Shown piece after piece: positions 7,241 to 9,883 of a stretch of 40,277 bases of DNA (position 1 is its first letter; each line of letters opens with the position of its first letter). This stretch comes from Planctomycetaceae bacterium (GTDB lineage: Bacteria; Actinomycetota; UBA4738; HRBIN12). Under the pieces are notes generated by a model that saw nothing but the letters and a program-made list of their open reading frames with translations, did no database searches and was not told where the DNA came from. The stretch lies in contig JBLMXP010000035.1 in assembly GCA_050257835.1 (NCBI GenBank), forward strand, positions 1 through 40,277, written 5' to 3'. The translations under genes were made by a program, and so were the position numbers.

Positions 7241-8049
7241 CGGGGCGCTCGGCTCTGCAGGAGCCCCGGCGCGGCGAGCAGCGCGAGCGCGCCGAGCAGG
7301 GCCGGGGAGGGCGACGGCCACGCGAGCGGCGAGGTCGAAGGGTGCAGCGGCGCCCAGCCGCCGACCGACGCCGCGACGAACACGGCCGCACCCGCCGCCC
7401 CGGCGAGCGCGACCGCGACCGACGGGGCGTTCCATCGCTGCGGCCGGTAGCGCGAGCGCGTCCCGCGACCGTGGCCCCGCGCGTCCATCGACTCGGCGAG
7501 GGTGACCGCCTCCTCCATCCCGCGTTCGAGCACCGGCACGGCGAGCGCCGGGAGCGAGCGCACGCCGTTGGCCCGGAGCCCGCGCAGGCGCTGGGCTTCG
7601 CGGACCTGCCCCACCCCCGCGATCGTCCGCGGCGCGATCGAGAGGGCGAGCGCCGCGGCGAGCGCCGGCTCGTGGAACCGCCGCGGCGCCATGCGCACGA
7701 GGCCGAACGGGTCGGTGACCGCGTTGAACGTCCCGAACACCACGAGGATCGTCGCCAGGCGGAGCCCCTCGAGGAACGCGAACGCCACGCTGGCGGCGTT
7801 CACGGTGCCGAGGAACACGAGCGCGGTCCTGATCGCGACCGCCGTCACGCCCGCCAGCAGGAACACACGGAACGAGCGCGCCGTCGGCCCGGGCACGCGA
7901 TGGGTCGCGTACACGAACCACGCGACCGCCCACAGCACGAGCAGGTAGACCGGGTCGGTCGTGACGAAGGCGACGACCGTCGCCGCCGTGGCCCACGCGA
8001 TCCACGCGCCGGGGTGGATCTGCGCACGCCCGGCCGCCGCCGTGCTCAT
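7237..8049 (-). CDS. ECF transporter transmembrane (T) component, CbiQ/EcfT family
   Basis: 270 aa from MSTAAAGRAQIHPGAW... It is hydrophobic, with the CbiQ-type region ...EAQRLRG... and ...AESMDARGHG. ATG at 8049 overlaps the stop of the upstream gene (ATGA). Confidence 0.8.
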   Translation of the reverse strand: MSTAAAGRAQIHPGAWIAWATAATVVAFVTTDPVYLLVLWAVAWFVYATHRVPGPTARSFRVFLLAGVTAVAIRTALVFLGTVNAASVAFAFLEGLRLATILVVFGTFNAVTDPFGLVRMAPRRFHEPALAAALALSIAPRTIAGVGQVREAQRLRGLRANGVRSLPALAVPVLERGMEEAVTLAESMDARGHGRGTRSRYRPQRWNAPSVAVALAGAAGAAVFVAASVGGWAPLHPSTSPLAWPSPSPALLGALALLAAPGLLQSRAPR

Positions 8050-8882
8050 GCCGCGCCCCGCGAACGGGACCGGAGGCGGAGCCAACCGCCTGCCCCGAGG
8101 AGCCCGGCGAGCGCCACCGCCGCGAGCAGCCCCGTGGGGAGGCCGCCCCCGCTCGACGGCGTCGCCGGCGGGGCGGCCGCGCGCGTCCGCGCCGTCGCCG
8201 TCTCGGCGGAGGTCTCGAGCGTCGGCGACGGGCTCGACGGGCGGCGGGTCCGCGTGGCGGTCGGTCGAGCCGAGGGGCTCGCCGCCGTGGTGGGCTTCGC
8301 CGCCTGGGTCGGGGAGGCCGCGGCGGTGGACGCCCGCGTCGGGGGGGAGGTCGCGGTGGAGCGCGCCGCCGCCGGCGGGCACACCGCGTCGATCGTCGTC
8401 GAGGGTGGCGCCGGGTGGTTCGTGCCGGAGTCGCCTGCCCCCCAGGACCAGCCGTCGAGGTCGCCGTCGCCGACCTTCGCCTCGCCGGCCCCGGTCGACG
8501 CCCAGGTCCACCCGCCGTGGCCGTTCCCGTGCCAGTACCCCCAGTAATCCGGGTAGTCGGCGAAGCAGTCGTCGCCGGCGGGGCCGACGCCGTCGAGCCG
8601 GCACACGGCGAGCCCGCCCAGACCGAATCCGTACGACAGGCCGTACTGCGCGTGCGCCAGCTCGATCAGGTGCAAACCCGAGACGGTGCCTGCGTCGAGG
8701 GCCACGCAGTACTCGAGGACCCGCGATCCGGTGTCGACGACCAACCCGGCGTGGGGGCCGCTCGTCGCGGCGCAGACGGGGTCGGTGCGCGAGGCGGCCG
8801 GCGCCGCGACGAGCGCGAGCGCGAGCGCGAGCACGGCCACGAGGGCCATCGCTCGGGGGCCCAGCGCGTCGCGAGGTCGCAT
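8046..8882 (-). CDS. secreted, C-terminally membrane-anchored protein with DUF4430-like (transcobalamin beta-domain-like) module
   Basis: 278 aa.
- Signal-like N-terminus (MRPRDALGPRAMALVAVLALALALVAAPAAS).
- A Cys-containing roughly 120-aa domain ending YWGYWHGNGHGGWTWASTGAGEAKVGDGDLDGWSWG.
- About 100 aa of P/T/S/A-rich linker.
- A C-terminal TM helix plus RLRSRSR tail.

ATG 8882 overlaps the upstream stop by 1 nt (TGATG). An alternative start is M12. Confidence 0.7.
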   Translation of the reverse strand: MRPRDALGPRAMALVAVLALALALVAAPAASRTDPVCAATSGPHAGLVVDTGSRVLEYCVALDAGTVSGLHLIELAHAQYGLSYGFGLGGLAVCRLDGVGPAGDDCFADYPDYWGYWHGNGHGGWTWASTGAGEAKVGDGDLDGWSWGAGDSGTNHPAPPSTTIDAVCPPAAARSTATSPPTRASTAAASPTQAAKPTTAASPSARPTATRTRRPSSPSPTLETSAETATARTRAAAPPATPSSGGGLPTGLLAAVALAGLLGAGGWLRLRSRSRGAA

Positions 8883-9883
8883 CAGCAGGCCGAGGCGGGG
8901 AGCTCGCCGGCGACCGAGCCCGACACGGGCAGCGGCGACTGCAGCAGGCCGAGGATCGCGCCGATCGACGCGCCCGCGTCCTTGCCGGTCCGCGTGCCCC
9001 TGGCCGTCCACGAGTACGCGACCGCCCCACACGGGTACTGGAGCTTGCGCAGGGCCTTCACGCCTCCCGCCGGCACCGGGGTCCCCTCGGCGTCGTAGGC
9101 CTGGATCACGAGGGCGGTCGAGTTCGCGTCGGTCGTGCGGTAGCCCCACGTGTAGCCCCAGCCGCCGTACGTCGCGTCGCGGAGCGACGGGAAGAACCGC
9201 TTCGTCGGGTCCTTCGCCGGGGTTGCCCCGACCGCGGCCAGGGCCATCGCCGCGTATGCGGTGGTGTTCGTGTCGGACAGGTAGTAGTCGGTGCCCTTGG
9301 GCGCCTTGCAGTGCGGGCCGTCGTTCGCGCCGGCCGGGCGGTCGTACTGCCAGCCGCCGTCGCCGCACTGCGCCTTGACCAGCCACCTGACGGCCTTCGG
9401 GGTCACCATCCCGGGCGCGTCGGCCTGGATCGCGAGGATCCCGAGCGCCTGGTCGAGCACGGTCGCGTCCCCGTAGCGGCCGTTGAGCCGCTGGGTCTGC
9501 GCGATCCGGTCCAGCAGGTTCGCGCCCGCGAAGTGCTGCGGGTTCAGACCGTCGGCCTCGGCGGCCAGGGCCACCTTCGCCTTCAGGCCGATCGTGTCCA
9601 CGTTGCCCTTCTTCACCTGCCGGCGCAGGAACCCGATCGCGGCCTGGACCGGGCTCTGGCCCGCGCCGATCGCGACCCAGGATTGGACGGCGTCGGCGGT
9701 CGAGCCGATCGCCGAGAAGCCGGGGACCGCGCCGGTCGTCGGGTCCTGACGCGACGCGACGTAGGCCCCGGCCGCCGTGGCCCGCTGCCGGTCGGTGAGG
9801 GCGGCCGCGCTCGACGTGGTCGCCGCCGCGATGAGCGTCACGGCGACGACGACGGAGGCGGCCCCTCGGAGGGTCCGGTGCAT
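8882..9883 (-). CDS. secreted prenyltransferase/squalene-oxidase-repeat (alpha/alpha toroid) protein
   Basis: 333 aa with signal peptide MHRTLRGAASVVVAVTLIAAATTSSAAA. QW-type motifs LVKAQCGDGGWQY and ATYGGWGY are characteristic of the terpenoid-cyclase/prenyltransferase toroid fold. The RBS GGAAGGAG lies about 8 nt upstream of ATG 9883. Confidence 0.75.
   Translation of the reverse strand: MHRTLRGAASVVVAVTLIAAATTSSAAALTDRQRATAAGAYVASRQDPTTGAVPGFSAIGSTADAVQSWVAIGAGQSPVQAAIGFLRRQVKKGNVDTIGLKAKVALAAEADGLNPQHFAGANLLDRIAQTQRLNGRYGDATVLDQALGILAIQADAPGMVTPKAVRWLVKAQCGDGGWQYDRPAGANDGPHCKAPKGTDYYLSDTNTTAYAAMALAAVGATPAKDPTKRFFPSLRDATYGGWGYTWGYRTTDANSTALVIQAYDAEGTPVPAGGVKALRKLQYPCGAVAYSWTARGTRTGKDAGASIGAILGLLQSPLPVSGSVAGELPASAC

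Follow-up and report, generated by a model that had tools for sequence, protein, structure and literature searches.

A cobalamin riboswitch-headed ECF operon with an exported toroid protein and a tethered transcobalamin-beta-like partner: a candidate corrinoid uptake system

What does an ECF transporter import when its genes follow a cobalamin riboswitch and the genes for two exported proteins? The question is raised by a 40,277-nt stretch of actinobacterial contig JBLMXP010000035.1, hereafter the window. Inspection of the letters alone had suggested that a split transcobalamin-like pair captures corrinoids for the transporter. The observation was confirmed by the analysis described here, whereas the interpretation was supported in part and required correction.

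Organization and conservation of the operon

The operon lies on the minus strand in the order cobalamin riboswitch, toroid gene, small-protein gene, EcfT, EcfA-A' and EcfS. The two exported proteins are encoded at 8882..9883 (toroid, 333 aa) and 8046..8882 (small protein, 278 aa), as the sequence-only reading had placed them. Their junction (...TGC TGATG CGA...) contains the 1-nt stop/start overlap of the proposed TGATG coupling, which was read directly in the sequence. Overlaps of 2-4 nt recur at the following three genes (8049/8046, 7240/7237, and 5672/5669), with the EcfT start overlapping the stop of the small-protein gene, and the five genes are translationally coupled behind the riboswitch. 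The stop-to-stop frame 8882-10039 that holds the toroid gene has a GC3 of 0.95. Two word-indexed searches recovered 425 and 141 homologues of the window proteins, and an exhaustive profile search returned 5302 clusters at 50% identity. Both ORFs thus are real genes rather than products of chance.

The Rfam match for the riboswitch within the window (RF00174, 10011-10074(-)) covers only part of the model and, at 31.6 bits, barely reaches the gathering score of 31.5. A covariance model constructed from homologous leaders (R1) delineated a full-length aptamer at 9985-10110(-) in the 5' leader with 110.7 bits (E 1.4e-24). Covariation was strong in 70 distinct leaders, with 93% of cells paired and 15 pairs showing double changes, and was matched by none of 500 shuffles. 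In 65 of 67 related Actinomycetota genome loci the riboswitch immediately precedes the toroid gene, and it also is present in four distant loci. Full-length Rfam matches were found in relatives, including AdoCbl RF01482 at up to 67 bits in locus L046 and RF00174 at 57 bits in L070. Thus, the B12 riboswitch that had been noted ahead of the pair is real and conserved. The leader between aptamer and start codon (9884..9984), a putative expression platform, includes a Shine-Dalgarno-like AAGGAG at 9894-9889 and has an uninformative MFE fold (z -0.77). As no intrinsic-terminator consensus was seen in this leader, control probably is exerted at translation initiation or via Rho. B12 riboswitches also control B12-independent isozymes. 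Moreover, cobalt transporters commonly are under B12 riboswitches (PMC2667541). For both reasons the substrate cannot be read from the riboswitch alone.

The three genes downstream encode a transporter. EcfT (7237..8049) matches Pfam CbiQ/EcfT with 28.5 bits (cutoff 25), and the fused EcfA-EcfA' ATPase (5669..7240) has two ABC_tran stretches in one 523-aa protein (163.9 bits), with NCBIfam ECF_ATPase_1/2 scores of 271 and 262 bits that both are under cutoff. EcfS (4860..5672; 270 aa) matches Pfam ECF_trnsprt with 37 bits (cutoff 30.7), but has no NCBIfam match and no sequence similarity was found to solved S components, CbrT included. Together the proteins comprise a dedicated (group I) ECF importer whose S component forms its own, uncharacterised subfamily.

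The linkage of these genes was assessed in the 67 Actinomycetota loci, 60 of which are not interrupted by a contig end. The cassette of toroid, small protein, EcfT, EcfAA' and EcfS is present in all 60 uncut loci, the 67th locus (L066) also possesses the toroid ORF, and adjacency of the toroid and small-protein genes is universal among related loci. The pair had been described as directly ahead of an ECF transporter; the three ECF genes are coupled downstream in the window, and the same linkage recurs in each of the related loci that were examined. Two of the distant loci (L068 and L071), whose small proteins are 33-41% identical, have the order riboswitch-toroid-SCO2322-EcfS-EcfT-EcfAA' followed by a gene for a PduO-type ATP:cob(I)alamin adenosyltransferase. 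L070 has the riboswitch, toroid and small-protein genes without adjacent ECF genes, and L072 has the riboswitch with genes for SCO2322, CbiQ and an ABC ATPase, and CobT (DBI_PRT) nearby. With these distant loci, the link is independent of inherited gene order.

Structure of the exported pair

The toroid protein begins MHRTLRGAASVVVAVTLIAAATTSSAAA and includes the QW-type motifs VKAQCGDGGWQYD and DATYGGWGYTWGY from which an alpha/alpha-toroid fold had been predicted. The AF2 model is a confident toroid (pLDDT 94, pTM 0.89) with a signal-peptide-like N-terminal helix and without a membrane anchor; Cys173, Cys192, Cys285 and Cys333 are invariant alignment columns. The likeness to the transcobalamin alpha domain that had been expected of this protein did not emerge at the top of the structure matches. 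The top Foldseek matches were SHC-like 8paj/8pak, drimenyl-PP synthase and RabGGTase beta, with alpha/alpha-toroid hydrolases (MmpH 7qsj, GH76 9r4k, GH105 4ce7) as further neighbors, and the transcobalamin alpha domain was absent among the best 50. PDB profile searches with the toroid retrieved cyclases only, and no transcobalamin. A Pfam toroid match also had been anticipated, but SQHop_cyclase_C scored 20.8 bits, under its cutoff of 26.1, and Cobalamin_bind gave no match in the window proteins. NCBIfam SCO2321_fam likewise was sub-threshold (71.7 bits; cutoff 300). The protein lacks a DxDD motif and matches no enzyme family above threshold in Pfam or NCBIfam.

The small protein begins MRPRDALGPRAMALVAVLALALALVAAPAAS and contains YWGYWHGNGHGGWTWASTGAGEAKVGDGDLDGWSWG. 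The architecture that had been outlined, namely a signal peptide, a Cys-containing domain, a P/T/S/A linker and a C-terminal TM anchor, was recovered in full. A signal-peptide-like helix is followed by the domain at residues 36-172 (8367..8777), for which AF2 pLDDT is 88-97 over residues 41-170 (above about 90 for roughly residues 40-170) and in which Cys37, 59, 94, 106 and 168 are invariant alignment columns. The linker of 80 residues (169-248; 8139..8378) is 79% P/T/S/A, has pLDDT of 43-57, and is variable in length and unconserved in sequence. A predicted helix at residues 250-274 (8061..8135) precedes the basic tail RLRSRSRGAA; the stop-transfer-like end GGWLRLRSR is conserved in relatives and no LPXTG signal is present at the C-terminus. 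According to the AF2 models, the small protein alone of the exported pair bears an anchor.

The assignment of this domain to DUF4430 and the transcobalamin beta domain stood with respect to fold, but not to Pfam membership. Foldseek ranks 1-18 in the PDB all were transcobalamin, intrinsic factor or DUF4430 structure 3u7z, in agreement with the likeness that had been proposed. The best match was 5no0 (E 9e-5, TM 0.77 on target, rmsd 2.8 A over 110 columns) and 3u7z was matched with E 9.5e-4. The models thereby support adoption of the transcobalamin beta-domain fold. Pfam DUF4430 gave no match, even at E<=10, in the window protein or in 42 relatives; one distant relative had a sub-threshold score (16.9 bits; cutoff 23.8), and PDB profile searches with the small protein gave no TC or DUF4430 match. 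The family instead is PF28005 'SCO2322', which is precomputed on the window's own protein; NCBIfam SCO2322_fam scored 32.9 bits, under the cutoff of 85.

The two halves had been regarded as a split carrier. They are indeed separate exported chains, but derivation from one transcobalamin-type chain was not sustained. Single-chain fusion proteins (P0292, P0311 and P0350) are ordered beta-beta-toroid, which is the reverse of transcobalamin. Their C-terminal halves match Prenyltrans/SQHop_cyclase_C, and P0292 is 27% identical to the window toroid (E 3e-8). These fusions and the translational coupling argue that the two exported proteins act as one unit.

Relation to characterized systems

It had been stated that no system of this kind was characterized, which is too strong. 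The lsa1836-1840 'ECF-like' operon of Lactobacillus (Latilactobacillus) sakei has the same five components, matched by described roles, and its deletion lowered heme uptake (bioRxiv 10.1101/864751). HHpred was used there to assign the roles of Lsa1840/1839/1838/1837/1836. Lsa1840 was taken as an exported toroid ('alpha-like') and Lsa1839 as its exported counterpart resembling transcobalamin beta, and the remaining three as EcfT, fused EcfA-A' and EcfS. In that study's proposal, the two exported proteins form a heterodimer like transcobalamin that supplies the S component, although the pair was homology-modelled and docked only, and the heme claim derives from the operon deletion (bioRxiv 10.1101/864751). 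A riboswitch heads the window operon and receives no mention in the L. sakei text, and the window beta-like protein differs in belonging to Pfam SCO2322 without a DUF4430 match, and in its long linker and TM anchor. By this comparison, the window system is not unprecedented, but is a member of a barely characterized kind proposed once before, in Lactobacillus, where experiment linked it to heme and not to B12.

The eukaryotic cobalamin carriers (transcobalamin, intrinsic factor, haptocorrin) provide the best structural match for the beta-like domain, and the toroid, an alpha/alpha barrel, falls in the architectural class of their alpha domain; carriers and pair alike are extracellular. The C-terminal 34 residues of human transcobalamin and YWGYW...GAGEAKVGDGDLDGWSW display by eye a common aromatic-W ... 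G ... DG[DE]-x-[IL] pattern, but no sequence-level similarity was found. The carriers are one polypeptide whereas the window pair is two, the toroid is closer to cyclases/prenyltransferases than to transcobalamin, and delivery is to an endocytic receptor in eukaryotes, but proposedly to an ECF transporter here.

Both window proteins match the paired NCBIfam models far under cutoff (32.9 versus 85 and 71.7 versus 300), and so form a distant SCO2322/SCO2321 branch. The SCO2321_fam profile has 405 positions and is annotated as a membrane protein; the window toroid matches only positions 47-226 and has no anchor. These families are named after adjacent Streptomyces coelicolor genes, and no publication on the function of the two genes was found. 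ECF-CbrT of Lactobacillus delbrueckii is a monoderm transporter for cobalamin and cobinamide that has no extracytoplasmic partners and whose ECF module is common to other S components (group II; PMC5997447), whereas the window S component has its own module and two exported partners. The Bacteroides lipoproteins BtuG and BtuH are a functional analogy, as B12-regulated surface corrinoid capture proteins that feed a transporter (PMC8941943, PMC13616437); their folds are unrelated, they belong to diderm outer-membrane systems coupled to BtuB, and homology was neither expected nor seen.

Proposed function and alternatives

The operon probably is a self-contained, B12-repressed corrinoid uptake system of a monoderm actinobacterium, with the exported pair as a probable cell-surface B12-capture device. 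The toroid and beta-like domain would enclose a corrinoid extracellularly, like the transcobalamin alpha and beta domains, while the ~80-residue P/T/S/A tether would retain the complex at the surface of the cell and let it reach through the wall. The loaded pair would hand the corrinoid to the S component, which the ECF module would drive by ATP hydrolysis. Sufficient intracellular adenosylcobalamin would shut the operon off through the riboswitch, probably by acting on translation initiation or via Rho.

A corrinoid-related role without hand-off is unlikely. The toroid might be an extracytoplasmic enzyme that releases or remodels bound or conjugated corrinoids, or the pair might sequester or store corrinoids at the surface, leaving capture to the S component alone. 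Enzymes are the closest structural neighbors of the toroid, the three hydrolases among them, but the protein has neither DxDD nor an above-threshold enzyme family. CbrT-type S components bind B12 with high affinity unaided (PMC5997447) and L070 lacks adjacent ECF genes, against which stand the coupling and fusions that argue for one unit and the co-operonic ECF genes in the 60 uncut actinobacterial loci and in L068 and L071.

Uptake of cobalt or another metal for B12 synthesis, with the Cys-rich domain and toroid supplying a CbiQO-like transporter, is quite improbable. Cobalt transporters do share this mode of regulation, EcfT matches the CbiQ family and the ATPase cbiO-type models, but ECF T and A components in general are recognized by these models, and the equivalogs specific to cobalt score far under cutoff. 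The S component also is of vitamin type (ECF_trnsprt / riboflavin-S-like) rather than CbiM/CbiN. Although the PDB entry 3u7z bears the label 'putative metal binding protein' and the small domain has five invariant cysteines, extracytoplasmic cysteines more likely form disulfides. Furthermore, the adenosyltransferase that ends distant operons acts on imported corrinoid and not cobalt, and no B12 biosynthesis genes lie within the 40-kb window.

The L. sakei precedent raises import of heme or another non-corrin tetrapyrrole, since the component lists are equal, operon deletion there reduced intracellular heme, and docking fitted heme between the modelled alpha/beta pair (bioRxiv 10.1101/864751). 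ECF-type heme uptake also is known in Staphylococcus lugdunensis (PMC7299338). Nevertheless, this substrate is very doubtful for the window operon: the operon starts with a cobalamin riboswitch in virtually all loci, in distant relatives it also includes a cobalamin adenosyltransferase gene, and no heme-related gene or regulator is near the operon in the 40-kb window.

Finally, the riboswitch call might be spurious and the operon might serve the envelope in a manner that has nothing to do with B12, for example if a prenyltransferase/cyclase-like protein handled isoprenoids or lipids. This reading is strongly disfavoured. In its favor, the only names that Pfam and NCBIfam offer for the toroid are cyclase/prenyltransferase repeats, and the window Rfam score sits at threshold. 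Against it, the toroid has no catalytic motif, export would place both proteins away from cytoplasmic prenyl-diphosphate substrates, and the riboswitch is corroborated by covariation and by the full-length matches in L046 and L070.

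Organization of the operon and its leader

The operon is encoded on the minus strand and comprises, in order of transcription, the gene for the toroid protein (8882-9883; 333 aa), recovered in an ORF scan, the gene for the small protein (8046-8882; 278 aa), and those for EcfT (7237-8049; 270 aa), the fused EcfA-A′ (5669-7240; 523 aa) and EcfS (4860-5672; 270 aa). A leader at 9884-10110 lies 5′ of the toroid gene, whose ATG is preceded by AAGGAG at a distance of 5 nt. Inspection of the sequence revealed overlaps of 1-4 nt at every junction, including the first, at which the final base of the toroid stop codon, TGA, is also the first base of the small-protein ATG (TGATG). 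Thus, the five genes are tightly coupled genetically and form one translationally coupled unit. The window has a G+C content of 74%, and GC3 in the stop-to-stop frame that contains the toroid gene is 0.95, as is expected of real genes. Every peptide motif quoted in an earlier, sequence-only reading of the region was found in the ORF translations. The Pfam families CbiQ (28.5 versus 25 bits), ABC_tran (two copies) and ECF_trnsprt (37 versus 30.7 bits) matched the third, fourth and fifth proteins, respectively, all above the gathering scores, which bears out the proposal that an ECF transporter directly follows the pair of exported proteins. As EcfT, two EcfA domains and an S component are encoded together, the gene content identifies the module as a dedicated (group I) transporter. 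The window EcfS has no NCBIfam name, and when it was compared by phmmer with every chain in the PDB (E≤10) no S component was matched, including the B12-specific CbrT (PMC5997447), to which EcfS has no detectable sequence homology.

An Rfam scan of the window produced a single match, to RF00174 (clan CL00101) at 10011-10074(-), with a score of 31.6 bits where the gathering threshold is 31.5 and with coverage of model positions 51-163 only. Taken alone, this match is marginal. However, Rfam cobalamin or AdoCbl matches were located immediately ahead of the homologous toroid gene in six of 11 related loci, and five of these were full-length matches to RF00174 or RF01482, the best being RF01482 at 67 bits in locus L046. 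The window leader aligns with those of its relatives across the whole aptamer, including the invariant core CCGGTC..A.TCCGGCGCTGTCCCGCAACTGTAGG ... AGCCAG. When seven leaders were used to construct a covariance model, the window scored 110.7 bits over 9985-10110(-). Of the 67 loci, 65 contained the element according to this model, in each case on the coding strand and shortly before the toroid gene. The two exceptions were L024, which is without upstream DNA, and L027 (toroid at 5931-6899), which is the sole locus possessing upstream DNA that gave no match to the riboswitch model even at E≤1. Across 70 distinct leaders, 93% of the cells are paired, and compensatory double changes occur at 15 of the 24 pairs; no shuffle out of 500 came near the real value, and slid controls likewise yielded none. 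As the related loci, the covariance model and the covariation agree, the marginal Rfam score is strengthened. The cobalamin riboswitch that had been proposed ahead of the pair is judged from these comparisons to be real, and control of the operon by B12 through this element is predicted with confidence. Minimum free energy folding of the leader was uninformative (z -0.77 at 75% GC), and no intrinsic terminator or promoter consensus was found in the scan.

Folds of the two exported proteins

The small protein was modeled by AlphaFold with pLDDT values of 88-97 across residues ~40-170. Next comes a linker of low confidence (pLDDT about 45-55), and residues 250-274 form a C-terminal helix. The best Foldseek match was the isolated human transcobalamin beta domain (5no0; E 9e-5), with a TM score of 0.77 on the target and an rmsd of 2.8 Å over 110 columns. 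The first 18 matches consisted entirely of transcobalamin (human, bovine and rat), human intrinsic factor, with full-length chains of these carriers at ranks 2-18, and the DUF4430 representative 3u7z, after which the probability collapsed. The comparison with 3u7z_A gave an E value of 9.5e-4, a probability of 1.00, a TM score of 0.66 on the target and 21% identity. The modeled domain thus has a transcobalamin-beta-like fold, and the structural intuition of the sequence-only reading was right. By contrast, the expected membership in Pfam DUF4430 (PF14478) did not hold: the family matched neither the window protein at E≤0.1 nor any of 42 relatives at E≤10. The distant relative P0282 scored 16.9 bits (E 0.0087) against a gathering score of 23.8, over profile positions 40-71 which correspond to the motif region from which DUF4430 had been suggested. 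The Pfam search of the small protein, in a release without PF28005, returned no match. The protein database has a precomputed assignment of PF28005.1 (named SCO2322) to the window protein itself (P0001). The NCBIfam model SCO2322_fam (NF040672) scored 32.9 bits, below the cutoff of 85, and PDB sequence and profile searches with two small-protein alignments (A1 and A4) returned nothing relevant. The checked C-terminal sequence of human transcobalamin, FWQLLRDPNTPLLQGIADYRPKDGETIELRLVSW, lines up by eye with YWGYW...TGAGEAKVGDGDLDGWSW of the small protein.

The linker of the small protein (residues 169-248) is 79% A/T/P/S and leads into the terminal helix and a basic tail, making this the tethered member of the two exported partners. 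A sortase anchor also was considered and rejected. The window protein possesses only a four-residue LPTG, most relatives have GGPPxG and the motif is not conserved; loose LPXTG matches were present in five of 42 relatives and Gram_pos_anchor matches in two of 42 (best E 0.049). The beta-like domain has five invariant cysteines (residues 37, 59, 94, 106 and 168), which may form disulfides or a ligand or metal site, and the distant relatives P0275-P0287 bear an extra CFCxC or CxC cluster ahead of the YW-x-YW motif.

The AlphaFold model of the toroid protein, based on an alignment of 42 sequences, had a pLDDT of 94 and a pTM of 0.89, and shows an N-terminal helix that precedes a barrel composed wholly of helices. 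Apart from the signal-peptide-like helix, the model contains no transmembrane segment or other anchor; the toroid protein is the free partner. The nearest solved folds detected by Foldseek in the PDB were single-domain proteins resembling squalene-hopene cyclase (8paj and 8pak) and drimenyl-diphosphate synthase, followed by the beta subunits of Rab geranylgeranyl- and farnesyl-transferases and a few toroid hydrolases, with E values of about 1e-5 and TM scores of about 0.5-0.6 (8paj, 8pak, 7xr7 and 3dsu). PDB sequence and profile searches returned cyclases only, with squalene-hopene cyclase 1gsz at E 4.9e-10 in the profile search. By its modeled fold and QW-type repeats the protein is assigned to the prenyltransferase/squalene-hopene cyclase alpha/alpha toroid superfamily, as had been anticipated. 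The supposed closeness to the transcobalamin alpha domain was not borne out as no transcobalamin chain appeared among the best 50 Foldseek matches. The Pfam matches that had been expected materialized only in part: SQHop_cyclase_C scored 20.8 bits, below its cutoff of 26.1, and Cobalamin_bind (PF01122) matched none of the window proteins or the 42 relatives. Unlike the alpha domains of transcobalamin, intrinsic factor and haptocorrin, the window toroid therefore is not recognizable as Cobalamin_bind, although the beta-domain fold is common to these carriers and the small protein. The NCBIfam model SCO2321_fam (NF053823) scored 71.7 bits (cutoff, 300) and matched profile positions 47-226 of 405; this family describes a membrane protein, and the window toroid falls short of it in score, coverage and transmembrane content. 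The cysteines at positions 173, 192, 285 and the C-terminal 333 are invariant in the 42-sequence alignment, a pattern that would fit an exported, disulfide-bonded protein.

Related loci and fusion proteins

When genomes were scanned with the alignment of the small protein, 67 loci were recovered, nearly all labeled as metagenome-assembled genomes of uncultured Actinomycetota or Actinomycetes. The order toroid, small protein, EcfT, EcfAA′, EcfS was observed in all 60 loci that are not cut by a contig end, and the seven that are cut were consistent as far as they reach, with a larger toroid ORF in L066. A profile limited to the domain brought in more divergent SCO2322 proteins, which were then traced to contigs; the word-indexed search with the domain alone yielded 54 proteins. 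In L068 and L071, the riboswitch, toroid and SCO2322 genes are followed by EcfS, EcfT and EcfAA′, an S-T-AA′ order compared to T-AA′-S in close relatives, and then by a gene for a PduO-type cob(I)alamin adenosyltransferase (11149-11712 and 11206-11769, respectively). In L070 (Acidimicrobiales; 5155-7588), a riboswitch of 57 bits precedes genes for a 554-aa toroid/DUF4214 protein and a small protein with no ECF genes nearby, and this pair may work with a transporter that is encoded elsewhere, or alone. In L072, a riboswitch, SCO2322, CbiQ and an ABC ATPase are present with CobT nearby. In this region (5257-7486), three small unannotated ORFs of 97, 193 and 95 aa, rather than a recognizable toroid gene, separate the riboswitch from the SCO2322 gene. 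As the connection with B12 persists across rearranged gene orders, it does not merely reflect inherited synteny. Accordingly, the question of whether the pair occurs apart from B12 riboswitches and corrinoid transporters was answered in favor of the sequence-only proposal.

At E≤1e-3, an exhaustive profile search recovered 5302 clusters (50% identity), of which 1026 had E≤1e-30. The best 150 of the 5302 clusters contained tandem multi-beta proteins and three single chains with a beta-beta-toroid arrangement (P0292, P0311 and P0350), the C-terminal halves of which match Prenyltrans/SQHop_cyclase_C. P0292 is 27% identical to the window toroid over 193 residues (E 3e-8) and has the DTNTT and DANSTA motifs in common with it; the match to P0350 is weaker (E 1e-4). 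The existence of these fusions is evidence in support of joint action by the two window proteins. Their arrangement differs from that of transcobalamin, intrinsic factor and haptocorrin, which are single alpha-then-beta chains, and from the two separate ORFs of the window. A further apparent fusion, of a toroid with a small protein (P0343; 623 aa), was set aside as its central ~70 residues look out of frame, probably due to a sequencing or assembly frameshift. P0291, P0295 and P0398 bear two or three tandem SCO2322/beta-like domains per chain without a toroid, which could provide multivalent capture. The Pfam and NCBIfam families are named after SCO2321 and SCO2322 of Streptomyces coelicolor and are catalogued without function. 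Nothing relevant was found in the literature on SCO2321-SCO2325, and a genome scan with the related protein P0288 that was aimed at Streptomyces relatives confirmed none. The family name points to S. coelicolor, a genetically tractable host.

Proposed corrinoid capture and its alternatives

Corrinoid capture outside the membrane by monoderm bacteria is poorly understood, and the absence of extracytoplasmic binding proteins is a defining trait of ECF transporters. To our knowledge, none of the characterized routes (BtuFCD, ECF-CbrT and BacA) involves a transcobalamin-like protein. Contrary to what the sequence-only reading had supposed, the system is not without precedent. In Lactobacillus sakei, Lsa1840 and Lsa1839 were assigned by HHpred as transcobalamin alpha and beta domains, and Lsa1838, Lsa1837 and Lsa1836 as EcfT, fused EcfA-A′ and EcfS, respectively, with an exported heterodimer proposed to feed the S component (bioRxiv 10.1101/864751). 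Compared by component list, all five components are common to both operons. A literature search found no other papers that link transcobalamin-like bacterial proteins to ECF transporters. The window system thus is a new and phylogenetically remote example of a type of system that has been proposed but is not biochemically characterized. The present analysis contributes the near-universal riboswitch control, the adenosyltransferase linkage, the evidence from the folds, the tether, the fusion proteins and the extent of the family. The earlier interpretation was partly supported, by fold, context and regulation, but not in DUF4430 membership, the closeness of the toroid to transcobalamin or the lack of precedent.

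In the mechanism that is favored, a corrinoid would be held at the cell surface between the toroid and the beta-like domain, the tether of ~80 residues would span the wall, the ligand would be passed from the pair to the S component, and plentiful AdoCbl would repress the operon. This chain is considered probable as a whole, with greater confidence attached to a corrinoid-related extracytoplasmic pair and less to the hand-off of ligand to the S component. A corrinoid-related enzymatic or sequestration role without hand-off is unlikely; the class II cyclase motif DxDD is absent from the 333-aa toroid sequence. Cobalt uptake is somewhat less likely again. Heme uptake has the precedent of L. sakei, in which deletion of lsa1836-1840 lowers heme uptake while the locus is annotated automatically for cobalamin transport (bioRxiv 10.1101/864751), but this role is improbable here since near-universal riboswitch control and the adenosyltransferase linkage point to corrinoids instead. 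An envelope function unrelated to B12 is very improbable.

If the pair binds B12, ECF transporters gain an extracytoplasmic capture stage, a large family (5302 clusters) catalogued only as SCO2322 acquires a function, and bacteria have a counterpart, perhaps ancestral, of the human B12 carriers. In addition, the linkage to a riboswitch and an adenosyltransferase suggests for the sole studied relative a clear role other than heme uptake, and one that can be tested. A broader view, which is entertained tentatively and is more doubtful than the favored mechanism, is that ECF transporters here and in thousands of SCO2322 loci use a membrane-tethered, two-protein transcobalamin-like corrinoid trap, that the bacterial toroid and beta module was the evolutionary source of transcobalamin, intrinsic factor and haptocorrin, and that the heme assignment in L. 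sakei is secondary or mistaken.

The flanks of the operon were scanned for B12 metabolism, and no other B12 genes are present in the 40-kb window. The flanking genes code for MFS transporters, a PNPOx-like protein, two cyclase-AAA-TPR regulators, a PAC2 protein and an ABC-2 system. The two regulators, at 10184-13504(+) and 24732-27854(-), are large paralogs with a zinc ribbon, an adenylate/guanylate cyclase domain and an AAA_16 ATPase, the latter protein possessing additional C-terminal TPR/MalT-like repeats. The former is transcribed divergently from the operon, with its start at a distance of about 70 nt from the riboswitch. The PAC2-family gene (proteasome assembly chaperone-like; 13511-14461(-)) is situated between this regulator and the ABC-2 transporter pair at 14397-16141. 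An RNase P RNA gene, which the Rfam scan did not detect in the window, closely follows the ECF cassette in four of the related loci: L046 (11024-11408), L008 (9289-9655), L043 (7517-7895) and L007 (7597-7954).
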